Shown here: positions 5,302-62,394 of the stretch, in pieces
How the letters are laid out: each line of letters opens with the position of its first letter
Position numbering within the stretch: the stretch's first letter is position 1
Source: Candidatus Levyibacteriota bacterium
GTDB taxonomy: Bacteria > Patescibacteriota > Microgenomatia > Levybacterales > UBA12049
Length of the DNA: 64,000 nt
Assembly (NCBI GenBank): GCA_003152105.1
Contig: PLZJ01000002.1
Coordinates: 685,140 to 749,139 of the forward strand
Direction: 5' to 3'
Translations under genes and position numbers: made by a program
The notes under the pieces: model-generated
Databases searched by the model: none
The model's input: the letters and a program-made list of their open reading frames with translations, nothing else
Told to the model about the DNA's origin: nothing

Positions 5302-5309
5302 TTATATGT

Positions 5310-5717: not shown

Positions 5718-5776
5718 TTGCAGCCTAGGATTTGCTTAGCTTGTAATCTAGCCTCGATTTCTGTACAATAAAAGCT

Positions 5777-11940: not shown

Positions 11941-12014
11941 GGATCTGTAGCTCAGATGGTTAGAGCGTTCGATTCACATTCGAAAGGTCAGAGGTTCGAT
12001 CCCTCTCAGGTCCA
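11941..12014 (+). tRNA. tRNA-Val (anticodon CAC), CCA not encoded
   Basis: Hand-folded cloverleaf: acceptor GGATCTG/CAGGTCC, D-arm GCTC-AGATGGTTA-GAGC, anticodon stem TTCGA/TCGAA with loop TTCACAT, T-arm AGAGG-TTCGATC-CCTCT, discriminator A. Confidence 0.75.
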
Positions 12015-12020
12015 CAACGG

Positions 12021-26568: not shown

Positions 26569-26895
26569 ATGAATACCACTCCTTATTACACAAAAATAAG
26601 ACGTTTGTTTGCAAGCTTTAAAAAAAACCTACGAATTAAAATAAATAAATATAACTGGGAATTTCATTTTTATGTTTTTGTTTTCTCTCTATGTTTCTCA
26701 GTTAGCGTTTTTATAATACTTATGATTAGTTTGCATTTATCTTTTAAGATGCCAAATACTACTGCGATAAATTGGTTTACCGTTCATAAGTATCCAAAAC
26801 AACAAGATATATTTTATTTTATATTCGGATTCCCTTTTATATTAGTACTGTCTATTATTATTTGGATGTTAACATTATGGGTAAAAAAGAGATAA
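26569..26895 (+). CDS. Small membrane protein, hypothetical
   Basis: 108 aa, 2-3 hydrophobic helices, embedded in the glycosylation operon. Confidence 0.35.
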   Translation: MNTTPYYTKIRRLFASFKKNLRIKINKYNWEFHFYVFVFSLCFSVSVFIILMISLHLSFKMPNTTAINWFTVHKYPKQQDIFYFIFGFPFILVLSIIIWMLTLWVKKR

Positions 26896-28430
26896 TACTA
26901 ATTATTGCTATCATCATATTTTCTGTTTTAATTGGTCAATCTACTTCAGGAAATATATTTTTTGGAGATTTAAATATGATAGATGAAGGCCAGTTTGCGG
27001 CTTGGGCTAATCATATGTTGCATGGGAAAATGATGTACAAAGATTTATATATAGTATATGGTCCTTTATACGTCTATCCTCTATATCTATTATTTAAAAT
27101 ATTATCACCTTCAGCTTTTCTGGTTAGATTATATCTTACATTAGGGGGAACTTTTGGAATCATTGCAATATATTTTGTAATGGTAGAACTAAAACTGAAT
27201 AGAATTGTAAAGTCATTATTGCTTATTTTGTTTTTATGTTTGCCAATGTTAAATTTAAGGGAAAGCATGGCCATATGGTGTTTATATTTTTTGTTAAAAA
27301 CAACAACAAAATCTTCGAAACACTCATTTTTAATTCTTGGAATTTTATCATCAATAACATTATTAGTTAGTCAAGATTTTGGTATCTTTATTCTTCTGGT
27401 AAGTGCTTTTCATCTATTTTACAGTAGGTTATTTGCTCACAATACGCTAAATAAACACGGCATCAGAGATTATATAGTAGGATATGTAACTATAATTATT
27501 TGTTTTACTGGCTGGGCTTTTAAAGAAGGGTGGTTACTTGATTATATAAGAGTGGCTACAGGTGTAAGCGTAGATCTATCGAGCATAAATGTTCCTAATG
27601 GGCAAAATTTTCCTAACCCGCTTTCTTATTTTGCTCTTCATACAGTCGGTATGAATGTAAAATATTTCTTCTCTAAAGATGTGCTTCTTTATGTAAGTAT
27701 ACTTGTTTACTTTGCCTCATTTTTCTACTTAACCGTAAATTATGTCAAAAGAAAATTAGTTAACACAAATTATAAGTTATTGTTAGTTACACTCTATGGA
27801 ATACTATTATATTGCATATTGCTAACTCGAAACGGCATCGGTCATTATTATTATACACTCCCTGCGGTTTTACTAATTTGCGGGTATTTTTTAAATCAAC
27901 TATTATTTATTAATAAAAAGATTACTCTTTTGTCTTCAGCATTAACTATAGTAATTTTGTCATTTTTTATACGATTACTTTATTTAAACAATCCAGAATT
28001 AAAACAGTCCTTGAATATCCATAATTATTTACCAATACATACAAATAATCCCTATAGAGTAGGAATTATAAATATTTCAAAATCTCAAGCAACAAAAATT
28101 TCATTATTGCAAACTTTTATTTTCAAAAATACTAAAAAAAGTGATTATGTATTCTTTTTTAATGATGAACCTATGATGTATATGTTAGTTGATAGAGTTA
28201 ATCCAACAGATTATGATTTGCCATTTGCAGGAAATACATTAGATAAAAGAATTAAAATGCTTAATCAAGTTGCTATGAAAAAACCAAAATATATTTTTAT
28301 AGATAATGATGTGTGGGCAGTAGATGGCATAAATAATAAAACACGTTTGCCAGAACTCACAAAATATTTATATTCTCATTATCATTTAATCAAAACTACT
28401 AATAATGTTCAGATATTTCAATTCATTTAA
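26862..28430 (+). CDS. Polytopic membrane protein, ArnT/PMT_2-like GT-C glycosyltransferase
   Basis: DEGQFAAWANHMLHGKMMYKDLYIVYGPLYVY matches the ArnT DEaRYA...KPPL.YW first-loop motif; about 11 TM. The real start is probably the ATG at 26877 (MGKKEIIL). Confidence 0.5.
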   Translation: MDVNIMGKKEIILIIAIIIFSVLIGQSTSGNIFFGDLNMIDEGQFAAWANHMLHGKMMYKDLYIVYGPLYVYPLYLLFKILSPSAFLVRLYLTLGGTFGIIAIYFVMVELKLNRIVKSLLLILFLCLPMLNLRESMAIWCLYFLLKTTTKSSKHSFLILGILSSITLLVSQDFGIFILLVSAFHLFYSRLFAHNTLNKHGIRDYIVGYVTIIICFTGWAFKEGWLLDYIRVATGVSVDLSSINVPNGQNFPNPLSYFALHTVGMNVKYFFSKDVLLYVSILVYFASFFYLTVNYVKRKLVNTNYKLLLVTLYGILLYCILLTRNGIGHYYYTLPAVLLICGYFLNQLLFINKKITLLSSALTIVILSFFIRLLYLNNPELKQSLNIHNYLPIHTNNPYRVGIINISKSQATKISLLQTFIFKNTKKSDYVFFFNDEPMMYMLVDRVNPTDYDLPFAGNTLDKRIKMLNQVAMKKPKYIFIDNDVWAVDGINNKTRLPELTKYLYSHYHLIKTTNNVQIFQFI

Positions 28431-38225: not shown

Positions 38226-38689
38226 ATCTAAAAAAATATATATATTTATGTTTCTTTGCCTGTATTGGATTATGGTTTCTGCTATCAATCGCAAGAACTG
38301 CATTTGATTTTGTGAGAATTATTCCAGAAGAAAAAGAGTGGCATGGACTGAGTTATGATCAAGAAAGATTTAAGCTGTTTGGAAATGATTATGCACTCAT
38401 TAAATTAATGAAAAAATATATAGCAAATAAATCTTATATTATCTTTATTTCAAAAGATGGGGAAGCATTTTATTTGTCAAGATATTACTTATACCCGTCC
38501 AATATGCTATTTGTCCAGTCACCCATAGATTTAAGAAACATAAATACAAAAAAATATTCAACTATAGTTGAATATCCAAATATAGTTAGTCTAAAGCCAT
38601 ATCTTGGTGCATTAGTGAATAATTATTCAATTGCATATCGTTTACAAGCAAAAGGTAATAGTAAAGAGATATTGAGGTTAAAAAAATGA
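38222..38689 (+). CDS. Small N-terminally anchored extracytoplasmic protein, hypothetical
   Basis: One N-terminal TM plus about 120 aa soluble. Start overlaps the upstream stop (ATGA) and its stop overlaps the next start. Confidence 0.4.
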   Translation: MNLKKYIYLCFFACIGLWFLLSIARTAFDFVRIIPEEKEWHGLSYDQERFKLFGNDYALIKLMKKYIANKSYIIFISKDGEAFYLSRYYLYPSNMLFVQSPIDLRNINTKKYSTIVEYPNIVSLKPYLGALVNNYSIAYRLQAKGNSKEILRLKK

Positions 38690-40005
38690 GTATTCTAAAC
38701 ATTTTATTATCAGCTACGTTACTTTTTGGAGCGGGTTTTAGTTTTCTGCAATTATTTTCAGTATTTAGGAAAAGTAGCATTATTGAAATTCTCTCAATTT
38801 CTTATGGTATAGGAGTAGCATTAATTTCATTTCAGCTTCTAATTTACGATTTACTCGGAATTAAATGGAATATAGCGTGGATTATACTGCCATGGATTTT
38901 AGTTTTCGCTTTTGTTTTATATAAAGTACCTTTTAAGAAGTTATTTAGTTTCTCAATTGTAAAATTTGATGCGTTCGAAAAAATCGTACTTTTATTGATT
39001 ATATTACTGTTGTGTTATGTAGGATTAGAATCAATTTTAAGACCACTATCAGCATGGGATGGATGGGCAACTTGGCTATTTAAATCTACAATATTTTTTA
39101 CCGATGGAAAGATAAATACAAATGCTTTAAATTTTACAGGATCCGAATATCCTTTACTGATAGGTCTTATGGGTACCTTTGGTTATTTAATGTTGGGTCA
39201 TATCGATGATAAGTTAATACTGATATTATTTTACTTATTCTACGTTTGTTTAGCTGGAATTTTTTACTATACCTGTAAAGAATTAACAAATAAGAAAACA
39301 GCTTTGATTAGTACCTTTTTATTACTATCGTTGCAAAATCTAATTAGGCATGGTGGAAGATATGATGCTGGAATGGCAGATTTGGCTCTTGGTTATTATT
39401 ATTTTGTTTGTTGTAGTTTGTTTTTAAAATTTATAAAATTTAAAAATAAAAATTCGTTTGTTTTGTTTATGTTTATGACCGGATTATTAGGTTTAGTAAA
39501 AGATGATGGTATTCCTATGACTCTATTTTTATGTATAGTCGGAGCAGTAAGTCTTTATTCAATTAAAAAATTATCTTATTTATGGATGTTATCATTCCCA
39601 ATCATAATTCTTGGTCAATGGGAATTATTTAAACTGGTATTTCATATGCCTGGAGCTCCAAAGTTTATCCAAAATCCTGAGTTTAATCGCACCATTACAG
39701 TAATACTTGGTATTAGTAAGGAATTTTTAAACCTCGAAAATTGGAATCTATTATGGATAGGATTCTTCTTATCGCTTATAATCCTTTTGATAAAAAAGCA
39801 CAAAATTGGTCTGATTATTTCACTTTTTGTAATATCTCAGCTTTTAGTTTATTACTACGTGTTCTTATCAACCTCACTCGATCCTTTAGCGCATATAAAT
39901 AATGTTATTGATCGCTTATTGCTTCATATTGCACCTGTTGCAATGCTTGTCGTTTCAATCCCATTATATTTATTGAGTAAAAGTTATAAAAACACCAAGT
40001 TATAA
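38686..40005 (+). CDS. Polytopic membrane protein, hypothetical (possible GT-C or polymerase)
   Basis: 439 aa, about 12 TM. No motif recognised. Confidence 0.4.
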   Translation: MSILNILLSATLLFGAGFSFLQLFSVFRKSSIIEILSISYGIGVALISFQLLIYDLLGIKWNIAWIILPWILVFAFVLYKVPFKKLFSFSIVKFDAFEKIVLLLIILLLCYVGLESILRPLSAWDGWATWLFKSTIFFTDGKINTNALNFTGSEYPLLIGLMGTFGYLMLGHIDDKLILILFYLFYVCLAGIFYYTCKELTNKKTALISTFLLLSLQNLIRHGGRYDAGMADLALGYYYFVCCSLFLKFIKFKNKNSFVLFMFMTGLLGLVKDDGIPMTLFLCIVGAVSLYSIKKLSYLWMLSFPIIILGQWELFKLVFHMPGAPKFIQNPEFNRTITVILGISKEFLNLENWNLLWIGFFLSLIILLIKKHKIGLIISLFVISQLLVYYYVFLSTSLDPLAHINNVIDRLLLHIAPVAMLVVSIPLYLLSKSYKNTKL

Positions 40006-41328
40006 CTTTTCTCTAATATAATTCCTAATAAATGTGCCTTGCGAAACATAAGAACCTACATTCGTAATTCCTTTTACAAATAATAGAAAATAAAAAATAG
40101 CCCCTATATTATATAAAACAAACATACACATTAAAGCTATACAAATTTTAACTGAATATTTCTTGATGAGTAATGTAATTATTTGCGATAACCCAATAGC
40201 ATACAGTGGATAGGTACTAATAAACATGCGAATACCAAAGGAAGAGCCTTGTTGCCATCCACTCCAATTCGCTATTAAATACATTTGTAATAATATAAAG
40301 ATGCTAAAAAGTGTTCCTAGGTAAGTTTGTTTTTTTATAAAAAAGAATAATCCAATGAATGCAAGTATTAATAGTGGAGTATATAGTACAAAACCTGTTT
40401 GAGAATTAAATGCTAGTCCAATTACATGAGGATTATTAAAATGAAATTGATTATCAAGCGCGTAAGGGCTTTTAAAGAAAGATCCAGTTATGTTCTTCCA
40501 TATAATCAATTCAGGAATAAATGATACGACAGTGCCAAATATAAGAAGTAAAATAGATATAAAAAATTCGATTATTTTCATTTTTTTAATTGTGATAAGT
40601 CGAGCAATATCAACAAATGGTAGAATTAAAAAAAGCAAATCTTGAGTTCTAATGAGAGCTAATATACCTACTGTAAAGCCAAGAATAAACCATTTAACAT
40701 ATGTTTGTTTTTTATGTGATTTAATAAAATACCAAAGTAAAAATGAGCTTGTTAAAAAAGATAATGGATGCGAGTTCAAAACATCTATTGATCCGTAATA
40801 AAGAAGATTAGTACCTAAAAGTAATGAAATAGATGTAATATACGAAATTGTACTATTTACATACATCTGTAAGGTTTTAATTAAAAAATATATACCTGCG
40901 ATGATAAATAGAATATTTTCTATACCTACAATAAATTGATATAAATCAGAATATCCTGAAAAAGAAAGGCTTTTATTGAATATAGTAAAGAATTTTGTTA
41001 GAAAATCCGCGAAAATAAATCCAAAAACCCAAGTAATTGACGAACCGGGAGGATACTGATACCAAGATATCTTATCAATTTTAAGATGGCTGTTGTTTGT
41101 TGGTTTTAGAGTATTATTATTTTGTGGGCTATAGATGTGTTCTAAGCCGTTGTAGAGATTTAAATCGTGATTAAAGTATAAAGCGTGAGCGTAGCTCCAA
41201 TAATAAATTCCATCTCCATAGATTGCTTGTCCAACAATTCTAAAATGAACATAAAACAATAAAAAAAATACCAAAAACAATGAAATTAACAATTTCTTCA
41301 TGGCTGTATTTATGATAGCATATAACAA
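40000..41328 (-). CDS. Polytopic membrane protein, ArnT/PMT_2-like GT-C glycosyltransferase
   Basis: GDGIYYWSYAHAL ... YPPGSSITWVFGF fits the first-loop motif. The real start may be M10 (MKKLLISLF). Confidence 0.4.
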   Translation of the reverse strand: MLYAIINTAMKKLLISLFLVFFLLFYVHFRIVGQAIYGDGIYYWSYAHALYFNHDLNLYNGLEHIYSPQNNNTLKPTNNSHLKIDKISWYQYPPGSSITWVFGFIFADFLTKFFTIFNKSLSFSGYSDLYQFIVGIENILFIIAGIYFLIKTLQMYVNSTISYITSISLLLGTNLLYYGSIDVLNSHPLSFLTSSFLLWYFIKSHKKQTYVKWFILGFTVGILALIRTQDLLFLILPFVDIARLITIKKMKIIEFFISILLLIFGTVVSFIPELIIWKNITGSFFKSPYALDNQFHFNNPHVIGLAFNSQTGFVLYTPLLILAFIGLFFFIKKQTYLGTLFSIFILLQMYLIANWSGWQQGSSFGIRMFISTYPLYAIGLSQIITLLIKKYSVKICIALMCMFVLYNIGAIFYFLLFVKGITNVGSYVSQGTFIRNYIREKL

Positions 41329-42070
41329 GATGATTTCGGCTATAATTTTATCTCATAATTCAGAGCATTCAATAGAAAAAGCCATTAAAAGCGTTATATG
41401 GTGTGATGAAACTATACTTATTGATGATGATTCAAGTGACAAAACAACAGAAATTGCTAGTAAATATAAAATTATCATACATAAACGTAGATTAAATGAT
41501 AATTTTAGTAACCAAAGAAATTTTGGATTACAAATTGCTAAAGGAGATTGGGTGCTTTTCTTAGATTCAGATGAGATAATTTCTACTAATTTACGAAACG
41601 AAATTGTTACATGCATAAAAGAAGACAAATATAATGGATATTATATTTGTCGAGAAGATTATGTTTGGGATATAAAGTTAAAAAATAATGAAATGGGAAG
41701 AGCTTTTAGTATTAGACTTGCAAAAAGAAACAGAGGACAATGGGAGGGAATAGTTCATGAAAAATGGATAATAAGTGGTAATACTAAAAAACTAAATAAC
41801 CCCATATACCACTATCCGCATAAATCAATTTCTTATTTCATCACAAAGATAAATTATTATACGGAACTTAGATCTAAAGAATTATTTAAACGTAAAAAGA
41901 AAGTTCGTTTTTTAGATATCGCAATTTATCCATTAGTAAAATTTTTTCAAGTATATATCATTAAACATGGTTACGAAGATGGAACAGCAGGTATAATTAT
42001 TTCATTTTTAATGTCATTGCATTCTTTTTTAGTTAGAGCAAAGTTATGGCAATTATGGCAAAACCAATAA
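41300..42070 (+). CDS. GT2 glycosyltransferase (soluble GT-A)
   Basis: ISAIILSHNSEHSIEKAIKSV...DDDSSDKT...FLDSDE (DxD). The likely true start is M11 at 41330. Confidence 0.65.
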   Translation: MAVFMIAYNKMISAIILSHNSEHSIEKAIKSVIWCDETILIDDDSSDKTTEIASKYKIIIHKRRLNDNFSNQRNFGLQIAKGDWVLFLDSDEIISTNLRNEIVTCIKEDKYNGYYICREDYVWDIKLKNNEMGRAFSIRLAKRNRGQWEGIVHEKWIISGNTKKLNNPIYHYPHKSISYFITKINYYTELRSKELFKRKKKVRFLDIAIYPLVKFFQVYIIKHGYEDGTAGIIISFLMSLHSFLVRAKLWQLWQNQ

Positions 42071-43497
42071 AGAATTATTTTATTTATATATCTTTAACAT
42101 TTTTAATATTTATTATAGCCATTGCATTTAATATATCTCCTTACTTACGAGGTCCTGGACCGTACCCACCAGATTGGCGCTGGGCTTATTTGTTTGCTAA
42201 CACTATTTATAAAATTTGGGCTCCATTAATTATATTAGTGGTGATAGGAATTTTGATAAAAATTGTTGAGGAACTTGAATTTAAGACATTAATTAAAAAC
42301 ACTAAAATTATAGTTGTATTATTTATTATTAGTTCATTTTTATTTCAAATTAGCATAGTATATTTCAGTAGATCTGGGATTGGTGTTTTATTACATAGAA
42401 TTATTGATCCAAATTTAAATGGATATTTTACTACTTCTTTGCATATTACAAATATTAATACATTTTTAAGCGGCTATTCTCAAAATGTGTTATCTTTTTC
42501 AATGCACGCACAAGGTCATCCGCCTGGAGCGATATTGCTTTACTATTTACTAAACCAAATTTTTAGCCATTTTACATTATTTAATAAGTTCGTAACTTCA
42601 ATACATATTCAGCACCAAGATGTAAATATAGTATGGTCAAATCTTAATACAAGTCAAAAATCTACTGCAATTTTTAGCATGATATTAATTCCTTTTTTAT
42701 CTTCATTGGTTCTCATACCAATCTATTTAAGCACAAAAGCTCTGTATGATATAAAAACAGCTTTAAGAGCGGTTCAGTTATATATATTTATACCTTCAAT
42801 TGTGTTATTTATTCCAATAAATGATGTATTTTTACCACTGTTTACGATGTTTTCATTCACTTTATTAATTTTTGGATTGAAATCACAAAAGTCCTATTTG
42901 GTTTTTCTGTCTGGAATTATTTTTTCATTAGGATTATTTTTTAGTATTTCTATATTACCTGTATTATTAATAATGTTTCTATTTCTTTATTTGTTTAATT
43001 ATAAAAAAAGTATAGCAGCTGGTCTTGTGTTTTATGTAGCAGGTTTACTAGTTGTTCCATTTATATTACTTTTAAACGCAATAGATCCATTGAAAATGTT
43101 TCTTGTCCTAATGAGCGGGCTTCCTAAAGGGAGAAAGTATAGTACTTGGATTGTTTACAATATATATGATTTTTATATTTTTTCTGGTATTCCAGTTCTT
43201 GTATTATTTTTTATATATTTGTGTAACTCTTGTAAACAATTATTTAAGAAAAAAATTCTAAGAGTAGATCTTTTATTTTTAAGTTTTATATTAATGGTTG
43301 TGCTACTAGATGTTTCAGGTAGTGTTAGAGGAGAGGCTGCAAGAATCTGGATACCATTTTATTCATTTTTAGTAATAATCATATCCAAATTTATAACACA
43401 AGATTTACAAATCAACAAAAAATATTTTATGTTCTTGATTTTACTCCAATGTATTCAAATTATTGTAATGCAAGAATTTTGGGTAACCTTATGGTAA
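42046..43497 (+). CDS. Polytopic membrane protein, hypothetical (GT-C-like?)
   Basis: 483 aa, about 12 TM. PYPPDWRWAY near the N-terminus. Confidence 0.35.
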   Translation: MAIMAKPIKNYFIYISLTFLIFIIAIAFNISPYLRGPGPYPPDWRWAYLFANTIYKIWAPLIILVVIGILIKIVEELEFKTLIKNTKIIVVLFIISSFLFQISIVYFSRSGIGVLLHRIIDPNLNGYFTTSLHITNINTFLSGYSQNVLSFSMHAQGHPPGAILLYYLLNQIFSHFTLFNKFVTSIHIQHQDVNIVWSNLNTSQKSTAIFSMILIPFLSSLVLIPIYLSTKALYDIKTALRAVQLYIFIPSIVLFIPINDVFLPLFTMFSFTLLIFGLKSQKSYLVFLSGIIFSLGLFFSISILPVLLIMFLFLYLFNYKKSIAAGLVFYVAGLLVVPFILLLNAIDPLKMFLVLMSGLPKGRKYSTWIVYNIYDFYIFSGIPVLVLFFIYLCNSCKQLFKKKILRVDLLFLSFILMVVLLDVSGSVRGEAARIWIPFYSFLVIIISKFITQDLQINKKYFMFLILLQCIQIIVMQEFWVTLW

Positions 43498-43588: not shown

Positions 43589-45142
43589 ATGTATCTATTT
43601 GCCTTAAGTATTGGATTATACTCATATGTCATTTTTGCACTTGGTTTGTTAGGACTAATAAATAAAGTTAGTATTTTTATTGCAACAACACTTTATGTTG
43701 CAGTAGTTCTATATGCCTTAGCTGAGAAAATACACTTTAAAAATTCTTTTCCAATATCTCTAAATAAAAAGAATAATATATACTTATTGCTTTTGAGTTT
43801 GTTAATTTGCGTTAATATAGTTGGTGTATTAGGACCTGAACTTTCTTTTGATTCACTTTGGTATCATTTAGTATTTCCAAAATTATATATTTTCTATCAT
43901 ACAATAACGTATATACCCGGTGGTCTACTTTATTATAGTACTATGCCTAAACTTGGAGAAATGTTATTTATTCCTATTTTGCTTTTTTCAAATGAATTAT
44001 TTGTTAAAGGCATAGAATTTTTATTTGGACTAGCAGTTGTACTATGTCTTTATAAATTTGCGAGGCAATATTTTTCGAGCACCATTTCAATACTTGTTTG
44101 CATAGTTTTTTATAGTAATCTAGTTGTTTCGTGGGAATCTATTACCTCGTATACTGATTTAATTTGGACTTTCTTTAGCATACTTGCTTTTATGTCATTT
44201 ATTTCTTGGAGTAAATCAAAAAATATTAAATTTTTGATATTTTCTTCATTATTAACAGGATTTGCCATAACGACAAAAGTTATTGCGATTGAAGCAATTT
44301 TGCCTTATATTCTCCTTCTTGCAACGCAAAGTAAGTCCTACAAATCTATCTATGTTATTTTATTATATACAGGAGGATGCTTACTTATACCACTACCTTG
44401 GTTTGTATTTTCTTATATGCATACGGGTAATGCATTTTACCCTTTCTTTTCAGAATTATACCCCATTCATATAATTAGGCTTAATTTGTATACAATATTA
44501 AAACTAATACTAACTCCTGCAGATCCTATTTCCCCTATTTATATAATAGTTATTCCATTTATTTTTGCGTATTTTTCAAAATTTAGATCTGAATTTAAAA
44601 TAGCAACAATCTTTGCTTTTACTATATTCTTACTTTGGATTTTTATACCACAAGATGGAGATACTCGCTTCTTAATGCCATATTTACCTGTATTTTCCTT
44701 GATTGTTGGAGAAATACTTTATTTATCGAAAAAAAGTTCATATTTTACCTTGTTAAGTTTTATTATTATTTTAATTTGTATAGTAAGTATTACATATCGT
44801 TCATTAGCAAATATCAAATATATACCATATATTTTAGGAGTTGAGTCTAAAAGTGAATTTTTATTAAACAATTTGAATTTTAAATATGGTGATTTTTATG
44901 ATACTGATGATTACTTTGCAATTCATATACATAAAAATGTTTTGCTATACGGTTTTCATAATTTATATTACATTGATTTTCCTTTTATTGACAATACCTG
45001 GATTAAAAAGGGAGACAAATTTTATTATGTAGCTGTACAACATGGTACAATACCTAGGTTATTCCACAAAGCTACATTAACCTACATAAATAGAGTCACT
45101 GATGTACGGTTATACTTTGTTGGAAAAACAGTTTGGAAATGA
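43589..45142 (+). CDS. Polytopic membrane protein, PMT_2-like GT-C glycosyltransferase
   Basis: LSFDSLWYHLVFPKLYIF ... IPGGLLYYSTMPKLGE first-loop motif; about 13 TM; 517 aa. Confidence 0.4.
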   Translation: MYLFALSIGLYSYVIFALGLLGLINKVSIFIATTLYVAVVLYALAEKIHFKNSFPISLNKKNNIYLLLLSLLICVNIVGVLGPELSFDSLWYHLVFPKLYIFYHTITYIPGGLLYYSTMPKLGEMLFIPILLFSNELFVKGIEFLFGLAVVLCLYKFARQYFSSTISILVCIVFYSNLVVSWESITSYTDLIWTFFSILAFMSFISWSKSKNIKFLIFSSLLTGFAITTKVIAIEAILPYILLLATQSKSYKSIYVILLYTGGCLLIPLPWFVFSYMHTGNAFYPFFSELYPIHIIRLNLYTILKLILTPADPISPIYIIVIPFIFAYFSKFRSEFKIATIFAFTIFLLWIFIPQDGDTRFLMPYLPVFSLIVGEILYLSKKSSYFTLLSFIIILICIVSITYRSLANIKYIPYILGVESKSEFLLNNLNFKYGDFYDTDDYFAIHIHKNVLLYGFHNLYYIDFPFIDNTWIKKGDKFYYVAVQHGTIPRLFHKATLTYINRVTDVRLYFVGKTVWK

Positions 45143-46326
45143 AAAACGTTGCATTCTTATCTTCTTTGTTAGTTCTGACAGTTGCTTTAATTTTAAATCA
45201 ATTTGCTCGAATTCAATTTGGTTCAATTGCTATTTCACTCATAGATATTAGCGTTGTCTTTTTACTCATTAGCAGAGGTAATTTAGTAAAGGAAATTAAA
45301 AAACATCAACTATCTAAATCGATTTTATATTTTGAGGTTGCATGTTTACTATCTTTACTTCTTAATATATTTAATTTTCAATTAGTTTTAATTGTTATTG
45401 GATCATTATATTTTATGCGTTGGATAGTTTATTCGAGTGTTGTTTTCAAAATTAATGCTTATTCTAAACGTCATCAGAGATATCTTGTTAATTCCATGGT
45501 TACTATTGGCGTATTTTTACTTCTCTTAGGATTTTTGCAATATGTTTACTACGATAATTTACAAAATTTGTATTATCTAGGTTGGGATAAACATTTATAC
45601 CGATTATTTACTACTTTTCTAGATCCCAATTTCGCGGGAGCGTTTTTTTCATTATTTAGTGTTTTACTTGCAGAACTCATTTTTGTTAATTTCAATTTAA
45701 AACATACTCTGCGACTTATCGGTTATTCATATTTGTTTACGATTACTTGTTTAGCGCTGTTTCTTACGTACTCCAGAAGTGCATTATTAATGTTTCTCTT
45801 TATTTTTATAATATATTTCTTCTTAAAAAGAAAGCTGCGATTTATTTTTGGCATAGTAATGTTGCTTTTAATTTATTTTATGATTGCATCTACTAAATTT
45901 AGTGTTGAAGGATTTAATTTATTAAGAAGCGTATCTTCAGAAGCACGACTGGCAACAAGTTCCGAAGCTATTACTATATTTTTACACAATCCAATAATTG
46001 GTATAGGATTTAACACATATAGATATGAACAAGTAAAATATGGATATAGGAGTATTAAAGGAGCAAGCATCAGTCACTCTGATGCTGGTGTGGACAATAG
46101 TTTTCTATTCATATTAGCAACAACGGGAATCGTTGGTTTTTTATTTTACTTCAATTTATTGTACGCAATATGCAGTTATTTATATAAGAAAAAAACTTCT
46201 TTCTCAATTATTGCACTTTCTTCATTATTTGGATTATTAATCGATAGCATTTTTATTAATAGTTTATTTTATCCGTTTTTTATGATTTGGTTATGGTGTT
46301 TGATAGGGCTTAGGGATTATATGTAA
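45133..46326 (+). CDS. Wzy_C-domain membrane protein (O-antigen ligase / polymerase / PglL-like O-oligosaccharyltransferase family)
   Basis: LFLTYSRSALLMF and a periplasmic loop between TMs, the Wzy_C signature; about 10 TM. Confidence 0.5.
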   Translation: MEMKNVAFLSSLLVLTVALILNQFARIQFGSIAISLIDISVVFLLISRGNLVKEIKKHQLSKSILYFEVACLLSLLLNIFNFQLVLIVIGSLYFMRWIVYSSVVFKINAYSKRHQRYLVNSMVTIGVFLLLLGFLQYVYYDNLQNLYYLGWDKHLYRLFTTFLDPNFAGAFFSLFSVLLAELIFVNFNLKHTLRLIGYSYLFTITCLALFLTYSRSALLMFLFIFIIYFFLKRKLRFIFGIVMLLLIYFMIASTKFSVEGFNLLRSVSSEARLATSSEAITIFLHNPIIGIGFNTYRYEQVKYGYRSIKGASISHSDAGVDNSFLFILATTGIVGFLFYFNLLYAICSYLYKKKTSFSIIALSSLFGLLIDSIFINSLFYPFFMIWLWCLIGLRDYM

Positions 46327-47035
46327 CTTTAATTTGCTTATCTGTTTTGTTTCCAGCTTGATCAGTGGATTCGATAGTAATATGAGTGTCTCCGCCGTTT
46401 TGTAAGGTAAGTATATAATTATAGTTGCCGTTCTCATCAATAGTTGCTTGATATCCGTTTACTGTTACCGTTGTATTTGGATCAGTAGTACCTTTAATAG
46501 TAATTGGATTTTGATCTTTTGAAAATGTTGAACCATCAGTTGGACTTGAGATGGTTAAGTTAGGAGGTTTGTTTAAGTAAGAAATCGATATTGTATTTGA
46601 ATTATTACTATCATTTAAATTTTTTTCCGCTTTTGCACTAAATTGGTTATTTCCTTGGGTAAGTGAGATATTCGTAAAAGTAAAACTTCCGTCAGTATTT
46701 GTACTTATATTTGTTACAAAATTGTTATTATTGTAGAGTTTTATTGTTTCTCCATTACTTGCGTTACCAGTAATAGTAATAGTATTGTTTTTTGTCGCGT
46801 TTGGAAGAGAATTTAAAGTCGGAGGAGCTATATAAGTTGGGGCAGTCGATTTGCTATTTGTAGAGAATGACGAATTTTGGCTTGAAGAAAATGAGCTAAT
46901 ACCTAGAATTAATGGAATACCAAACTTTACAACTATAATGACAACTATAATTATACCAATTATTGTAAAAATAATGTAGCGTTTGGTTTGATTTTCTAGC
47001 TTTTTTTCTAAACGTGACTCGTATCTTCTGTTCAT
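46310..47035 (-). CDS. Membrane-anchored surface protein with tandem Ig-like (Big) domains
   Basis: N-terminal TM IIFTIIGIIIVVIIVV, S/T/N-rich linker, then two beta-rich repeats (TITITGNASNGETIKLY... and ITIKGTTDPNTTVTVNGYQATIDENGNY...TDQAGN). Confidence 0.55.
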   Translation of the reverse strand: MNRRYESRLEKKLENQTKRYIIFTIIGIIIVVIIVVKFGIPLILGISSFSSSQNSSFSTNSKSTAPTYIAPPTLNSLPNATKNNTITITGNASNGETIKLYNNNNFVTNISTNTDGSFTFTNISLTQGNNQFSAKAEKNLNDSNNSNTISISYLNKPPNLTISSPTDGSTFSKDQNPITIKGTTDPNTTVTVNGYQATIDENGNYNYILTLQNGGDTHITIESTDQAGNKTDKQIKVTYNP

Positions 47036-47036
47036 G

Positions 47037-47107
47037 AGCCGATAAGCAGAATCGAACTGCTATTTAAGCTTTACGAAAGCCTTGTTCTACCATTTAACTA
47101 TATCGGC
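47037..47107 (-). tRNA. tRNA-Thr (anticodon CGU), CCA not encoded
   Basis: Reverse complement folds as acceptor GCCGATA/TATCGGC, anticodon stem AGGCT/AGCTT with loop TTCGTAA, T-arm AGCAG-TTCGATT-CTGCT, discriminator T. Confidence 0.7.
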
Positions 47108-47163
47108 ATTTTGTAGTATTGTATGAAATTTTTAGTTTTATCGCAAATATATTTGCCGATATA

Positions 47164-47571
47164 TTATTTGGGTTTATAATGTCTTGCAACTTTCAACTCT
47201 GCAATTGCACGTACAAATTCTTTTTCAATTTCAGCATAATCTATATCTCCAACCTTCTCACTCATAAGTTTTTCAGCACGTTTTTTTGCTTCTTCAGCTT
47301 TGGTTATATTAATATCTTGTGCGTGAATTGCATAATCTGCGAGAATGGTGAGTTGGTTATTGCTAACTTCTATAAAACCTCCTGTTACCGCTAAGTGCTG
47401 CGATTGCCCTTTTGTTTTAATTTCAAGTTCTCCTGGAACTAATTTAGAAAGGAGAGGAGTGTGTTCCGGTAAAACTCCTATAATACCTTCTTCTGTTGGA
47501 ATAATCACTTCATCTACCTCACCTTGGTAAATTACTTGTGATGGAGTGATGATGGATAAATGTAGTTTCAT
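47164..47571 (-). CDS. atpC: ATP synthase F1 epsilon subunit
   Basis: LSIITPSQVIYQGEVDEVIIPTEEGIIGVLPEHTPLL; operon position after beta. Confidence 0.85.
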   Translation of the reverse strand: MKLHLSIITPSQVIYQGEVDEVIIPTEEGIIGVLPEHTPLLSKLVPGELEIKTKGQSQHLAVTGGFIEVSNNQLTILADYAIHAQDINITKAEEAKKRAEKLMSEKVGDIDYAEIEKEFVRAIAELKVARHYKPK

Positions 47572-49870: not shown

Positions 49871-51403
49871 TTAATCTTTAAATCCTTTTTTAAATTCTTT
49901 GCTTGCTTTGTCTAACTCTTTTTTAGTATCTTCGTTAATTTTATTTCCTTCAGCGAGTGTCTTTGCAATTGATTTATAATTTTTATCAATAAAACGAATA
50001 AATTCATGAATAAATCTCACACAATTTTCAACTTTAACATCGTCTAGATAGCCCTTTGTTACAGCCCAAATACTTAGTACTTCATTATTTTCTGCTAATG
50101 GTTGATATTGCGCTTGCTTGAGTATTTCCGTAGTTCTCTGACCCCTATCAAGAAGTTTTTTAGTTGCATTATCAAGTTCACTACCAAATTGCGAAAATGC
50201 AGCCAATTCTCTATACTGCGCTAAATCTAATTTCATGCTACCAGCAACTGATTTCATTGTTCCAGTCTGCGCAGCTCCTCCGACTCTTGATACTGATATA
50301 CCAACGTTTATAGCTGGTCTAATACCTGAATTAAATAAATCAGCTTCTAAAAAGATTTGTCCATCAGTAATAGATATAACATTAGTTGGAATATAAGCTG
50401 ATACATCTCCTGCTTGTGTTTCAATGATTGGTAGAGCCGTGATAGAACCACTTCCGTTTTTCTTGTTTAACCTAACAGCTCTTTCTAAAAGTCTACTGTG
50501 TAAATAAAATACGTCTCCAGGATAAGCTTCTCGGCCCGCAGGTCTTTTTAAAACCAATGTTAGCTGTCTATATGCCCACGCGTGTTTAGTTAAATCATCA
50601 TATACAATTAACACATCTTCACCTTTTTCCATAAAATATTCAGCGATTGCAACTCCTGAATATGGTGCTAAATACTGAAGTGCTGCAGGATCAGAAGCAC
50701 TTGCTATAACGACTATTGAATATTTAATTGCTTCCGTTTCCTTTAATTTGTTTATTACTTGAGCTACCGATGTTAATTTTTGACCAATTGCGACATAAAT
50801 ACATATTACTTGCTTTAAGTTTCTTTCTTGTTTTTTTTGATTTAGGATCGTATCGATTGCGATTGCAGTTTTTCCAAGACCTCTATCTCCAATAATAAGT
50901 TCTCTTTGTCCTCTTCCAATAGGAAACATTGCATCTATTGAAGTAATACCGGTTTTTAATGGTGTATCGACTCCTTGTCTATCCACAACTCCAGCTGCAA
51001 TTTTTTCCAAAGGCATGTCTTTGCCTTTTTTAATTGATGTCTTCCCATCAAGGGGTAGTCCAAGAGGATTGACAATTCTACCCAATAATTCTTCCGAAAC
51101 TTTTATGCTTAAGATTTTTCCTGTTCTTTTTGCAATTTGCCCTTCAACGATTGATGATCCAGGACCAAGCAGTACAACTGATACATAATCTTCATCCAGT
51201 CCAAGTACTAATCCGTTTATATTTCCTTCAAATTCTATTATTTCTCCTATTTCTGCTTTTGATAACCCTGAAATGGTAATAACGCCGTCAGTATTTTTTT
51301 CTACTTTTCCAATATTTTGTACTTTGGGATCAGATGAAAATGTCTGAAGGTTTTTTTCTAATTCTTTAATAATTTCGTTATCGTTAATCATAGCTTTGTT
51401 CAA
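49871..51403 (-). CDS. atpA: ATP synthase F1 alpha subunit
   Basis: Walker A GDRGLGKTAIAIDTILNQ; 510 aa. Confidence 0.95.
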   Translation of the reverse strand: MNKAMINDNEIIKELEKNLQTFSSDPKVQNIGKVEKNTDGVITISGLSKAEIGEIIEFEGNINGLVLGLDEDYVSVVLLGPGSSIVEGQIAKRTGKILSIKVSEELLGRIVNPLGLPLDGKTSIKKGKDMPLEKIAAGVVDRQGVDTPLKTGITSIDAMFPIGRGQRELIIGDRGLGKTAIAIDTILNQKKQERNLKQVICIYVAIGQKLTSVAQVINKLKETEAIKYSIVVIASASDPAALQYLAPYSGVAIAEYFMEKGEDVLIVYDDLTKHAWAYRQLTLVLKRPAGREAYPGDVFYLHSRLLERAVRLNKKNGSGSITALPIIETQAGDVSAYIPTNVISITDGQIFLEADLFNSGIRPAINVGISVSRVGGAAQTGTMKSVAGSMKLDLAQYRELAAFSQFGSELDNATKKLLDRGQRTTEILKQAQYQPLAENNEVLSIWAVTKGYLDDVKVENCVRFIHEFIRFIDKNYKSIAKTLAEGNKINEDTKKELDKASKEFKKGFKD

Positions 51404-51740
51404 TATAGGTTATTATCTTTTGTATTCTATCACGTAAACTGACTTCATATAATAAATCGCCTACAGTAATTCGAATTCCAGGGTTTATTGATGGATTTAT
51501 ATCATAAAGTACTTTTTTATTTGGAAAAAGCGAGTGAATATTATCGCTGAAATTAGTGTCTGGCTTACTTGGTAGTGTAACATACACATTATTTGCATTT
51601 TCATTTAAACGCAATGCTTTAATAAACTGCTTTAATTCACTTCGTTTAAGTTGTCCTGCTATTAATGATGTTTTATTTCTATCAAGAACAGCATTTGAGT
51701 AACTTTGAGACAATAATTTTTGTAATTGTTTTTTTGTCAT
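51384..51740 (-). CDS. atpH: ATP synthase delta (OSCP) subunit, unusually short
   Basis: C-terminal INPSINPGIRITVGDLLYEVSLRDRIQKI matches the delta C-terminal signature. Only 118 aa (usually about 175); positioned between b and alpha. Confidence 0.65.
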   Translation of the reverse strand: MTKKQLQKLLSQSYSNAVLDRNKTSLIAGQLKRSELKQFIKALRLNENANNVYVTLPSKPDTNFSDNIHSLFPNKKVLYDINPSINPGIRITVGDLLYEVSLRDRIQKIITYIEQSYD

Positions 51741-56529: not shown

Positions 56530-57309
56530 TTACGCTGCTTTAGAAAGTGTTCGGTATGATATTGCATTTTGGTCATTTCGTTCAGCGATTATATTTGATC
56601 CACGATTTTCTTTTGCAACTGATAAGGCTAGCCCAGCTTGAGCAATTAAATCTTCTGCAGATTGTGTGCCATCGTATTTTGCAAATCCAAAAGTTAAGCT
56701 AATTTTTCTTGTTGCATCTTTTGTGTAAGTGGGAAGTACTGATGCTTTTGCAAATAATTCACTACTCATATCACCAATATTTTTTTGATGTCTGTTTGTT
56801 AATTCAAGTAATGACGCTTCATTTAATGTATGTGGATCACCTTCAATAACCTGAATAAATTCGTCTCCACCGTCATTCTTTCGAGCTAACAAGTCTCCAG
56901 GCCTTACTGGTAAATGGGCCATAAGCTTGATTGCTTGATCTCCGCCTTCATGAGGACCAAATGCACTATTAAAATCTTTAAAATTATTAATGTCCATAAA
57001 TAACACGTATAAATTAGGAGCACTTCTTCTATCGCCTTTTTCTATATCTAATTCTTGTCTATTAATTGTTTGAATTCTCGATTTTAGGTCTTGTAATAGT
57101 TGTCTTCCATTTGGTAAACCTGTTAACGCATCAATATTAGATAAGCCTTTATATTCATCTCTTTCTGCAATAAGTGATTTCTGCTTTTCTTCTGCCTCTC
57201 TTCTTTGAAGATGATTTTTTACAGTACCTAACGCATCATGAAGAAATGTTTTTCTTACTTGTTCGTATGGAATGCTAACTTCTGATTCAGGAACAGATTT
57301 TTCTGACAT
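56530..57309 (-). CDS. GGDEF-domain protein (putative diguanylate cyclase) with N-terminal coiled coil
   Basis: DALTGLPNGRQLL ... FMDINNFKDFNSAFGPHEGGDQAIKLMA ... ARKNDGGDEFIQV carries the GGDEF A-site and surrounding conserved positions. Confidence 0.65.
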   Translation of the reverse strand: MSEKSVPESEVSIPYEQVRKTFLHDALGTVKNHLQRREAEEKQKSLIAERDEYKGLSNIDALTGLPNGRQLLQDLKSRIQTINRQELDIEKGDRRSAPNLYVLFMDINNFKDFNSAFGPHEGGDQAIKLMAHLPVRPGDLLARKNDGGDEFIQVIEGDPHTLNEASLLELTNRHQKNIGDMSSELFAKASVLPTYTKDATRKISLTFGFAKYDGTQSAEDLIAQAGLALSVAKENRGSNIIAERNDQNAISYRTLSKAA

Positions 57310-60355: not shown

Positions 60356-61117
60356 TTATAACGCAGTACCAAGCTTATTAGCAATTGCTTTTTGTGCTTT
60401 ACTTTCTAAGAAATCATCTAGCTCATCCAGAGTAATTTTTTTATTGTATTTAACTTCTAACGCTTTTTTTAGTAAAAAATCTGCAATTTTAGGATTTTTA
60501 GGAAGTAACGGTCCATGAAAGTAACAGCCAATTGCATTTTTGTATATCATTCCCTCTGTTTTATCATGTCCATTGTTTCCAAATCCTTTGATTACTTTTG
60601 CAAAAGGAAGAGTAGAGTCTTTAAGATAAGATCTGCCTCCGTGATTTTCAAAACCTACTACTAATTCATTTTTTAATTCTGGAATTTGTATTTTACCTAT
60701 TATATTACCGATTAGTCTATGGTTTTCATTTTCAGGATGTATTGTGTCAACATTAAAAATACCAAGACCTTTAATTCTTTTTCCAACTGCAGGTTCATAA
60801 AAATTGCCCATCAACTGTGGAGATCCACATACAAAAAGTGAGGGGATATTTTTTTCAATAAGATTCTTAATAGTAGTACCTTTTTTGTCGCGTAAATCAG
60901 AAATCAGGATTTCTTGTTCTTTATCTTGTGCTCCACCACCAAAAAGAAGATCAATTTTATTTATACTTGAAAGCGGTGTTGTAAACGAAATTGGAAGAAT
61001 TTTGACTTCAATTCCGCGCCACTGTGCTCTTTTTTGCAAAACAAGTATATTGCCTCGATCGCCATATGTGCTCATTAATTCAGGGTATAACCAGCCTATT
61101 GTGATGTTATATTTCAT
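60356..61117 (-). CDS. gatD: Lipid II isoglutaminyl synthase, glutamine amidotransferase subunit GatD (CobB/CobQ-like GATase)
   Basis: STYGDRGNILVLQKRAQWRGIEV and LFGGGAQDKEQ parallel S. aureus GatD. 253 aa. 4 nt overlap with the upstream murT. Confidence 0.7.
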   Translation of the reverse strand: MKYNITIGWLYPELMSTYGDRGNILVLQKRAQWRGIEVKILPISFTTPLSSINKIDLLFGGGAQDKEQEILISDLRDKKGTTIKNLIEKNIPSLFVCGSPQLMGNFYEPAVGKRIKGLGIFNVDTIHPENENHRLIGNIIGKIQIPELKNELVVGFENHGGRSYLKDSTLPFAKVIKGFGNNGHDKTEGMIYKNAIGCYFHGPLLPKNPKIADFLLKKALEVKYNKKITLDELDDFLESKAQKAIANKLGTAL

Positions 61118-62394
61118 AATATTTTTTTGCCAAGAATTATTTTTCTAATTTCTAGCATTGCAGTGTATGTAGGGAGTATGTATAGAGTTTCATTATCTGG
61201 TAATGATTTTAAAACTTCTGTTAGCTCGATTTCTATATTTTGTACTATCGTAACATCTTTAATTCCTTCATATTTAATACGAAGAGCCATATCATATACT
61301 CTGTCACCTGACACATAAATATGAGGGCACGTATTAAGCAAAGAAAGATCTGTATCCCAAATCCATGATATATCTCTGCCATCTGGAATTCTATCATTTA
61401 AACAAAATAAAATATGTTTTGCGTTTAGTTTTTGAATAGTTTGCAAGGATTGATTAAAGCTTGTTGGATTTTTTGATAAAAATATCTGAACTTTTTTATT
61501 GCCAATTTGTATTATTTCTTGTCTTCCAAAAGCGGGTTTAAATGATTTTAGTCCGTTTTCAATATTCTCATTTGGGATGCCAATGGATTTTGCGGTAAGT
61601 TCTGATGCGAGAATATTGTACTCATTGTAAGTTCCCGGTAGTGGATAAAAAATCGCATTAGTTAGATCTACCTTTGGTCTTTTAAAACTACAGTGTTTAC
61701 AGTAATATTTTCCCAAATGCGAAAAATAAGTTACAGAGTAAGTTAACTTGTGAAAACATTTAGGGCAAAATAGAGAATCTGATGAAAAACTATCAGAAGG
61801 TAAAGATTCTGCTTTGTCTAAACCAAAATATTTTACTACATGATTACTGTTACTACCAAGATAGGCAATTTGTGGATCGTCTCCATTACAAATTAAAATA
61901 ACCTCTTGAGGAAGTGATGATACTGTTTTTTTCCATTTTTCAATTATCGTTCGAACCTCTCCATATCTATCTAACTGATCTCTAAATAAATTAAGTAAGA
62001 CTATGTAGGAAGGTGTTATTTCTTTTACAATTAATGGAAATATGTTTTCATCTATTTCAAATAATGCAAAGTCAGCAGTAATTTTGCCATTTACGTTAGC
62101 ATTTGAAATCAGAGCTGAAGCAATTCCGTTCATTAGGTTGGCACCAGAGGTGTTTTGTATTACGGTAAAATTGTTTTTTTTGAGTATTGTTTTTAGCAGT
62201 TTACTTGTTGTGGTTTTGCCGTTAGTTCCAATAATAAATATGACTTTTGTTTTAGAAAAAGCAAGTTCTGAAGAAATAAAATGAGGCTGTAGAAAAAGCA
62301 TCAAATGTCCAGGCCATGTAGAGCCATTACCTAAATTAAGTGTTCTTATGCTCCTGCTTATTATTTTTAATAGAAAGATGAGAAGTACGTTCAT
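61114..62394 (-). CDS. murT: Lipid II isoglutaminyl synthase, Mur-ligase-like subunit MurT
   Basis: Mur ligase P-loop IIGTNGKTTTSKLL; Cys4 ribbon CPKCFHKL...CKHCSF; C-terminal DUF1727-like region; 426 aa. Confidence 0.7.
   Translation of the reverse strand: MNVLLIFLLKIISRSIRTLNLGNGSTWPGHLMLFLQPHFISSELAFSKTKVIFIIGTNGKTTTSKLLKTILKKNNFTVIQNTSGANLMNGIASALISNANVNGKITADFALFEIDENIFPLIVKEITPSYIVLLNLFRDQLDRYGEVRTIIEKWKKTVSSLPQEVILICNGDDPQIAYLGSNSNHVVKYFGLDKAESLPSDSFSSDSLFCPKCFHKLTYSVTYFSHLGKYYCKHCSFKRPKVDLTNAIFYPLPGTYNEYNILASELTAKSIGIPNENIENGLKSFKPAFGRQEIIQIGNKKVQIFLSKNPTSFNQSLQTIQKLNAKHILFCLNDRIPDGRDISWIWDTDLSLLNTCPHIYVSGDRVYDMALRIKYEGIKDVTIVQNIEIELTEVLKSLPDNETLYILPTYTAMLEIRKIILGKKIL

Follow-up and report, generated by a model that had tools for sequence, protein, structure and literature searches.

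Convergent genes for a WaaL-fold Wzy_C protein and a membrane-anchored double-Ig protein are paired beside tRNA-Thr in Levybacteria

We analyzed a 64-kb stretch of DNA (hereafter the window; 30% G+C) from contig PLZJ01000002.1 of a Candidatus Levyibacteriota bacterium. Near one end of a large glycan locus in the window, a gene for a polytopic membrane protein of the Wzy_C family (45139–46326, plus strand; 395 amino acids) meets tail to tail a gene for a membrane-anchored protein with two immunoglobulin (Ig)-like domains (46310–47035, minus strand; 241 amino acids). The Ig gene begins immediately behind a tRNA-Thr(CGU) gene on the same strand (47037–47107, minus strand), which is itself preceded by a promoter-like site (47118–47146, minus strand). 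Relatives of both proteins carry the name Candidatus Levybacteria, a lineage of the Candidate Phyla Radiation, and the 275 clusters of the Ig protein family are named as Levybacteria proteins. An earlier sequence-only reading had proposed that the two genes encode an O-oligosaccharyltransferase and its substrate, and that tRNA 3′ processing yields an essentially leaderless mRNA for the latter. Our analysis shows that the two genes are paired in nearly all related loci and that the pair is usually linked to the tRNA; it points, more tentatively, to a glycan ligase with a dedicated acceptor or partner.

The open reading frame of the Wzy_C gene spans 45133–46326 on the plus strand and closes with a stop codon at 46324–46326. 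This end stands as originally described, but the start moves from a TTG at 45133, which is possible as an alternative, to the ATG at 45139 used in the public gene call. The ATG forms an ATGA overlap with the stop codon (45140–45142) of the upstream gene for a GT-C glycosyltransferase, an arrangement that suggests translational coupling. The protein falls in the Wzy_C family: it matches Pfam PF04932 with 66.7 bits (cut-off, 31.7 bits; E = 2.6e-18) over residues 202–340, covering profile positions 3–149 of 149. The predicted structure (predicted local distance difference test score, pLDDT, of 83.6) has a WaaL-type polytopic fold. In a fold comparison, the O-antigen ligase WaaL scored 23.7 with 339 residues aligned, followed by FtsW (13.1) and RodA (12.1 and 10.2); Foldseek concurred in this order, with WaaL first and FtsW and RodA next. 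Only the comparison of folds disclosed WaaL; neither the protein nor its family profile found a WaaL match when the PDB was searched by sequence.

An alignment of 26 Wzy_C homologues contains 54 invariant positions, and identity remains at or above about 40% across species. The invariant residues include R213 (in LTYSRSA), R263, R270 (in SSEARL), and H313-x5-D319-N320, which lies in the signature SHADAGTDNSFLF (window positions 46075–46113; residues 313–325 in the 395-residue numbering). When the protein was aligned to E. coli WaaL with hhalign, R213 fell on R215 and R270 on R288 in an alignment that is weak (E = 0.026 over 133 columns) but has a meaningful register. R215 and R288 are essential in E. 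coli WaaL, and their counterparts in PglL of Neisseria meningitidis, R224 and R298, are conserved (PMC3643930).

The Ig gene encodes a type-II membrane-anchored protein. On the minus strand it specifies a basic cytoplasmic N-terminus (amino acids 1–20; 46976–47035), a membrane helix (amino acids 21–47; 46895–46975), a polar Ser/Thr-rich linker with a conserved FIAPPxL segment (amino acids 48–72; 46820–46894), a first Ig domain with its lead-in (amino acids 73–155; 46571–46819), and a second Ig domain (amino acids 156–241; 46313–46570). The membrane anchor, linker, and two Ig-like domains seen by the sequence-only reading are borne out by AlphaFold, Pfam, and Foldseek alike, together with family alignments. 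The AlphaFold model (pLDDT 86.7) places a helix at residues 8–50, disorder at 50–63, and β-sandwiches at approximately 85–153 and 160–240. Pfam matches are to Glucodextran_B, Big_6, and Big_13, and Foldseek reveals a resemblance to the tandem bacterial Ig domains of the adhesins Bap and SiiE. Homologues align from Met1, which identifies the ATG at 47035–47033 as the true start; no other ATG, GTG, or TTG lies ahead of the membrane helix.

Membership of the Ig protein in PamR (NCBIfam NF058578, CPR_pilus_PamR), the proposed membrane anchor for a recently described pilus of the Candidate Phyla Radiation, was considered and rejected: residues 26–155 match with 34.4 bits against a cut-off of 300. 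The membrane helix of PamR is C-terminal (bioRxiv 10.64898/2026.03.03.709456), whereas that of the Ig protein is N-terminal; with the topology thus reversed, the match probably reflects just a shared Ig-type fold.

Both stop codons fix the overlap of the two genes at 46310–46326, so that the 17 nucleotides (nt) originally reported hold. This short segment is dual-coding: it encodes the C-terminus of the Ig protein, ...VTY(S/N)(P/Q)*, antisense to the C-terminus of the Wzy_C protein (consensus TtAatTAtTCTCa.TAA). Of 70 relatives in which the length of the overlap was scored, 45 share the exact value of 17 nt, which the dual coding of both C-termini probably keeps from changing. Overlap alone is unremarkable, given that four of the eight convergent gene pairs in the window overlap. 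The others are 13920–14972/14934–16691 (39 nt), 34938–35924/35914–36636 (11 nt), and 38686–40005/40000–41328 (6 nt); tail-to-tail overlaps are a general feature of this compact genome. Most C-termini in the Ig family read Tyr-Ser-Pro or Tyr-Ser-Gln with Ser in the penultimate position, at which the window protein has Asn (46313–46321), and this Ser/Asn position falls inside the dual-coded overlap. Among enzymes dedicated to pilin glycosylation, a C-terminal Ser or Thr is a frequent target.

What sets the pair apart is its conservation. Six homologues of the Ig protein (40–49% identity) led to nine loci, and a convergent Wzy_C gene is present in all nine. A scan of metagenomes with an eight-sequence alignment as the query added 80 further loci, which were scored with family profiles and ARAGORN. 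Among the 77 distinct Ig proteins in this set, 69 are followed by enough DNA for the check, and 67 of these have the convergent Wzy_C gene. The reverse direction gives the same picture: in five of five loci reached from the Wzy_C side (L010 and L091–L094; four Wzy_C homologues missing from the list of Ig matches and one locus from a genome scan), the Ig gene is present. Conservation of the pair and its linkage to the tRNA over approximately 80 related loci exceed chance. A candidate gene for a membrane-anchored acceptor thus adjoins the Wzy_C gene in the manner of PglL-type neighborhoods; pglL, pilO, and similar genes commonly adjoin membrane-anchored pilin substrates, and 21 of 31 pglL genes lie next to pilin genes (PMC3643930). 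Of the proposed enzyme–substrate pair, the pairing is therefore near-universal in both directions, whereas the Ig protein is a candidate substrate rather than an established one.

The arrangement might instead be a relic of gene order inherited around the ATP synthase operon, which lies on the far side of tRNA-Thr from the pair, and around tRNA-Thr itself. The two genes would then have no functional link, and the 17-nt overlap would persist since any change would harm both proteins. All related loci do belong to one lineage, the ATP synthase genes are syntenic in most of them, and overlaps occur in half of the window's convergent pairs. However, the pair persists where both of its flanks have changed: in L007 the upstream region has been replaced by unrelated genes, in L093 the upstream GT-C gene is missing, and L092 has an extra GT87 gene. 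In nine relatives that form a sublineage (L019, L028, L044, L056, L062, L070, L077, and L078, at about 4700–6200, and L061), a gene for a PMT_2 GT-C protein of approximately 500 amino acids stands between the pair on the strand of the Ig gene, starting directly after the Ig stop codon; the inserted gene is thus another glycosylation enzyme. Moreover, both proteins would act at the outer face of the membrane. We consider mere inheritance an improbable explanation, and a functional link between the Wzy_C and Ig genes likely. In L007 (1–4914), the tRNA and ATP synthase genes have given way to genes for an SMC-like ATPase, an SNF2 helicase, a Trp-repressor-like protein, and a Bro-N protein; the replacement region looks like a mobile or defense insertion.

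The junction between tRNA-Thr and the Ig gene was defined in three ways. ARAGORN places the tRNA at 47036–47107, whereas the match to Rfam RF00005 (63.8 bits, model positions 1–71) ends at 47037. By hand reading, the acceptor stem ends at 47038 and is followed by the discriminator U at 47037, a C at 47036, and the ATG at 47035–47033; CCA is not encoded. The Ig gene thus begins 1 nt past the discriminator base, with both genes on the minus strand, exactly as had been noticed from the sequence. The tRNA cloverleaf is predicted to fold independently and to leave the AUG region unpaired. Folding of the tRNA–mRNA junction revealed no special structure beyond the tRNA (z-score −0.21), and an Rfam scan of 46000–47400 returned nothing besides the tRNA except for a chance, below-threshold match to a snoRNA.

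A promoter-like site found by consensus scan, TTGCGA-17 nt-TACAAT (47118–47146), has its −10 element ending 10 nt before the 5′ end of the tRNA. Across 60 distinct loci whose promoter region was examined, 44 have a TTGCTCTTT-17-TAcAAT promoter that ends 8–14 nt upstream of the tRNA. The consensus scan of the Ig strand detected no promoter-like site inside the tRNA or between the tRNA and the ATG, and a terminator scan detected no intrinsic terminator at the gene junction. With both genes on one strand, a promoter upstream of the tRNA, and neither promoter nor terminator before the coding sequence, the site at 47118–47146 probably drives both tRNA-Thr and the Ig gene, and their co-transcription appears very likely. 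In six relatives (L009, L019, L035, L044, L046, and L058), the 60 nt upstream of tRNA-Thr resemble the 3′ part of another tRNA, which suggests a tRNA array in place of the conserved promoter.

The linkage extends well beyond the window. In 65 of the 72 loci that allowed assessment, tRNA-Thr(CGU) precedes the Ig gene and shares its strand. The spacer between them has a median of 15 nt; it does not exceed 10 nt in 23 loci and stays within 20 nt in 42 of the 65. By the ARAGORN count the window alone has a spacer of zero, and relatives range from 2 to approximately 100 nt. Spacers of 11–12 nt contain GGAG directly after the tRNA, and in those of 24 nt or more a TGTAATATAAT box ends 6–8 nt before the ATG in the classic geometry of leaderless genes. 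In eight relatives (L023, L032, L039, L040, L081, L084, L087, and L091) the tRNA encodes CCA (GGCTCCA), whereas in the window and most others GGCTC continues with a different base; members of the lineage may therefore mature the tRNA 3′ end in different ways. In L093, tRNA-Thr is inverted relative to the Ig gene (4215–4287 of the reverse-complemented locus). We also considered a codon link between tRNA-Thr(CGU) and the Ig gene and discarded it, because ACG is not enriched among the Thr codons of the gene (2 of 34 vs 8.5%); the Ig protein contains 14% Thr compared to 5.4% in other genes.

These spacers bear on whether the Ig mRNA is made by processing at all. It could be transcribed from a promoter inside the tRNA gene, or by read-through from the ATP synthase genes, in which case the abutment would reflect genome compaction only. 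Where the spacer reaches 24 nt or more, relatives do possess their own TGTAATATAAT box at the distance given above, and the inversion of the tRNA in L093 and its absence from several loci indicate that the Ig gene can be expressed without it. In the window, however, the last 20 nt of the tRNA contain no −10-like hexamer; moreover, spacers are 20 nt or less in the majority of linked relatives, and it is the promoter upstream of the tRNA that is conserved. Such a non-processing origin seems quite unlikely.

Translation of a processed message would fit the habits of this genome. A Shine–Dalgarno-like motif, sought 6–18 nt upstream of the start codon, precedes only 4 of the 57 open reading frames of at least 100 amino acids in the window. 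Seven window genes have a TATAAT-like box ending 6–8 nt before the ATG (for example, 336–1034, 2492–2830, 5777–8605, 9708–10118, and 51384–51740). These features suggest widespread leaderless or ribosome-binding-site-independent translation. The 3′ end of the tRNA directly precedes the ATG of the Ig gene, with no GGAG-like motif and hence no Shine–Dalgarno site. Because the spacer is 1 nt and CCA is not encoded, the 5′ end of the mRNA would lie near the AUG, and a processed, nearly leaderless Ig mRNA in this genome is somewhat more probable than the contrary. For the leaderless message originally envisaged, then, co-transcription is well supported by the frequent linkage, by spacers that mostly leave no room for a promoter, and by the conserved promoter upstream of the tRNA, but a spacer of zero is unique to the window.

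The Wzy_C gene does sit at the edge of a glycan locus, which ends there as the sequence-only reading had supposed. The locus (12021–46326) extends for approximately 34 kb between tRNA-Val (11941–12015) and tRNA-Thr, makes up about 3% of the 1.15-Mb genome, and has a G+C content of 27–29% compared to 32–34% in its flanks. It encodes at least seven large polytopic proteins of the GT-C type (PMT_2, YfhO, PTPS_related, and LA_3751-like) as well as GT2 and GT4 transferases, acyltransferases, sugar methyltransferases, UDP-glucose dehydrogenase, epimerases, and a Wzx-type flippase (Polysacc_synt_3; 18649–19887). No initiating phosphoglycosyltransferase was recognized in the locus. Directly upstream of the Wzy_C gene and on the plus strand are genes for a GT2 protein (41300–42070; Pfam), a PMT_2-like GT-C protein (42046–43497; Pfam), and a second such membrane glycosyltransferase (43589–45142; Pfam PMT_2 with 27.5 bits and a weak match to the NCBIfam LIC_10190 family), the first two in the same operon direction as the Wzy_C gene.

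The presence of a flippase raises the alternative that the Wzy_C protein is the repeat-unit polymerase of a Wzx-dependent pathway, in which case the Ig gene would be unrelated or would encode a chain-length regulator. No other recognizable polymerase is present, and the depositors of the structure 7tpj term its chain a “polymerase/ligase”. Comparison of the Wzy_C profile with two polymerases, E. coli WzyE and WbbH, by hhalign aligned only 12–19 columns at E values of 0.1–0.7, which is noise, and the protein has no Wzy, EpsG, or WzyE match in Pfam. In addition, the Wzy_C protein is well conserved across species while the neighboring glycosyltransferase genes vary, a pattern that is atypical for polymerases and more in keeping with a ligase that has a fixed acceptor than with an enzyme specific for one repeat unit. 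The locus also contains several unassigned polytopic proteins that could have such a role (26862–28430, 38686–40005, and 40000–41328). We regard a Wzy-type polymerase as very unlikely.

The GT-C genes prompt a different alternative, that the Ig protein is glycosylated by a PMT_2-type GT-C enzyme using a polyprenyl-monophosphate sugar supplied by the GT2 protein, leaving the Wzy_C protein to serve another acceptor. Protein O-mannosylation by actinobacterial Ppm1 and Pmt provides a model. A GT-C protein of approximately 530 amino acids precedes the Wzy_C gene in most relatives and a GT2 protein of approximately 250 amino acids recurs further upstream, so that both are found beside the pair; the PMT_2 gene of the nine relatives described above immediately follows the Ig gene and shares its strand, and several PMT_2-like proteins are encoded in the window. 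Yet the content of adjacent GT-C genes varies, with none in L093 and an extra GT87 gene in L092, whereas the Wzy_C gene is the invariant neighbor; furthermore, the PMT_2 matches are near the cut-off (25–36 bits). Accordingly, we give this alternative little credence.

Other genes of the window hint at the type of cell envelope. Neither lpx nor waa genes occur within its 64 kb; bacteria of the Candidate Phyla Radiation lack lipopolysaccharide, and a lipid A–core acceptor is not expected in the lineage. Genes for a GGDEF protein (56530–57309) and a MurT/GatD pair (60356–62394) lie near those for DNA polymerase III alpha and GatA/GatB. MurT and GatD amidate peptidoglycan in Gram-positive bacteria, and their presence points to a Gram-positive-type cell wall.

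These findings can be joined in a model comprising a ligase of the WaaL/PglL superfamily and a dedicated, membrane-anchored acceptor or partner that is expressed from a tRNA–mRNA co-transcript. The adjacent 34-kb locus would assemble a polyprenyl-diphosphate-linked glycan, which the Wzx-type flippase would move across the membrane, after which the Wzy_C ligase would transfer it, at the outer face of the membrane, onto a conserved acceptor. The Ig protein would either be the substrate itself or serve as an obligate membrane partner in presenting the acceptor; because the lineage presumably lacks lipid A–core, the product of the invariably paired gene is the likeliest acceptor. Its flexible, Ser/Thr-containing linker would lie just outside the membrane beneath the two Ig domains, and should the Ig protein prove to be the substrate, it would keep the surface glycan attached to the cell as lipid A–core does O-antigen. 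The Ig gene would be transcribed from the conserved tRNA-Thr(CGU) promoter as a tRNA–mRNA precursor. Since the tRNA is without an encoded CCA, we propose an endonucleolytic cleavage of the RNase Z type after the discriminator that would free an mRNA beginning with C-AUG. Such an mRNA could be translated without a Shine–Dalgarno site, given that these sites are rarely used in the organism. Taken as a whole, we judge this model to have somewhat less than an even chance of being correct.

Several observations weigh against the model. The Wzy_C and Ig genes are convergent and not co-transcribed, whereas known enzyme–substrate pairs are usually co-directional (PMC3643930). Part of the conservation of the pair must reflect inheritance, considering the single lineage and the synteny of the ATP synthase genes. 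The enzyme did not pass as WaaL proper: it reaches 17.9 bits with the RfaL equivalog NF012031 (NCBIfam), for which the cut-off is 277. The PglL_A motif (Pfam PF15864) was not found either, Wzy_C being the sole Pfam match when the protein was scanned at E values up to 0.1. PilO likewise lacks the PglL_A motif; an enzyme without it may still be an O-oligosaccharyltransferase. This motif sets PglL apart from WaaL (PMC3643930). The original placement of the protein among WaaL and PglL/PilO enzymes is thus upheld by its WaaL-like fold at the level of the superfamily, but not for either enzyme proper. The catalytic residue in these enzymes is the His of a His-Asn motif (H338 in E. coli WaaL, H349 in PglL, and H324 in PglS). 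In the weak alignment with WaaL (E = 0.026), H338-N339 corresponds to the invariant D319-N320, and the invariant H313 is found 6 residues upstream. The active site may therefore be a variant that differs from the canonical His-Asn; the structural model has low confidence at residues 313–315.

Further objections concern the linker and the message. Residues 48–72 of the window protein consist of 48% Ser plus Thr. Across the family, however, the linker contains 27% Ser plus Thr compared to 19–22% in the rest of the protein, a modest enrichment; the strong Ser/Thr richness is particular to this genome, and the length of the linker is fixed at 18–23 residues. Column identity in the family is 0.63 for the membrane helix (with F38 and G39 invariant) and 0.72 for the pre-Ig segment compared to 0.45 for the linker. 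Better conservation of the helix and of FIAPPxL...ATNSA than of the linker is as compatible with a stable partner as with a substrate. Finally, some relatives encode CCA or carry their own −10 box or GGAG, which means that the processed-mRNA route is not uniform.

The order of conservation within the Ig protein favors a variant in which it is a non-catalytic subunit. Its helix would pack on the WaaL-fold enzyme, leaving the Ig domains to guide the glycan or measure it, by analogy to class B penicillin-binding proteins with RodA and FtsW or to Wzz with Wzy; the true recipient of the glycan would then be a lipid, the cell wall, or a different surface protein. FtsW and RodA, the next structural neighbors after WaaL, have been solved as complexes with single-pass partners, and the constrained length of the linker and the resemblance of the Ig domains to accessory domains of adhesins and carbohydrate enzymes are in keeping with such a role. 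To our knowledge, no partner subunit of this kind is known for WaaL/PglL enzymes. Moreover, a membrane-anchored substrate must dock on its enzyme too, so that a conserved helix does not discriminate, and the locus shows no evident alternative conserved acceptor. A purely non-catalytic subunit is accordingly unlikely in our estimation. A role of the Ig protein as substrate and not as partner, for which we argue by analogy with known ligase–substrate pairs, is a serious possibility that nevertheless falls somewhat below even chance.

It is possible to go one step further and to imagine that the main surface glycan of Levybacteria is anchored through the double-Ig protein, in place of a lipid, by a divergent Asp-Asn ligase and that the anchor is made abundant by a tRNA-excised mRNA. 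The polymer from the variable locus would be joined to the juxtamembrane linker to give a protein-anchored equivalent of O-antigen, and the excision of the anchor mRNA by tRNA 3′ processing would mirror, in a bacterium, the tRNA punctuation of mitochondria. This version is speculative, and we consider it rather unlikely in its full form.

Much of bacterial diversity belongs to the Candidate Phyla Radiation, whose members attach to hosts by means of their surface. If the Ig partner is the acceptor, the pair would provide this group with its first predicted system for protein-directed glycan ligation, a simple and testable model of surface-polymer tethering in a cell without lipopolysaccharide, and a small enzyme–acceptor pair of possible use in glycoengineering. 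The conserved fusion of tRNA and gene would be a natural test case for bacterial tRNA processing that defines a translatable mRNA 5′ end. We know of no description of a processing-generated, nearly leaderless mRNA as a conserved bacterial arrangement. Our literature search, incomplete in coverage and thus weak evidence of novelty, found no description of tRNA-processed leaderless mRNAs in bacteria or of O-antigen-ligase-like enzymes in the Candidate Phyla Radiation.

Comparison with known systems places these features in context. The E. coli thrU-tyrU-glyT-thrT-tufB operon likewise places a coding gene directly behind a tRNA-Thr gene of the same strand, with no intervening promoter, but its spacer exceeds 100 nt and contains a ribosome-binding site, compared to 1 nt in the window. 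In mitochondria, excision of tRNAs gives mRNAs that start at, or a few nucleotides from, the AUG; similarly, no leader is predicted to be left before the AUG of the Ig gene. The SEDS pairs RodA-PBP2 and FtsW-FtsI differ from the Levybacteria pair in chemistry and in Pfam family, and the Ig protein has no transpeptidase domain. WaaL of E. coli and of Cupriavidus metallidurans (PDB 7TPG/7TPJ) is the closest match by fold, but sequence identity is only 12–15%, the score with the RfaL equivalog is far under the cut-off, and the lipid A–core acceptor is not expected here. WsaB of Geobacillus stearothermophilus and WsfB of Paenibacillus alvei are Wzy_C enzymes predicted to be glycosyltransferases for S-layer proteins in Gram-positive bacteria; by description they share with the Levybacteria protein the Wzy_C domain, the absence of an outer membrane, a location in surface-glycan loci, and a predicted reaction that moves a lipid-linked glycan onto a surface protein (PMC2943079). 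Their targets, in contrast, are large self-assembling S-layer proteins, and TPR motifs are involved.

Closest in working principle are PglL-ComP of Acinetobacter baylyi and PilO/TfpO-PilA of Pseudomonas aeruginosa. In these systems, as in Levybacteria, the gene for an enzyme with a Wzy_C domain stands beside the gene for a small protein that is anchored by an N-terminal hydrophobic helix and exposed at the outer face of the membrane, and Arg residues matching R215 and R288 of WaaL are conserved in the Wzy_C family. The Levybacteria partner differs in being a double-Ig protein rather than a pilin, and the genes are convergent and overlapping. The enzyme is without PglL_A and has Asp-Asn in place of His-Asn, with a His 6 residues upstream. 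Finally, the host belongs to the Candidate Phyla Radiation, and the glycosylation envisaged here is a prediction that takes PglL-ComP and PilO-PilA as its nearest precedents.

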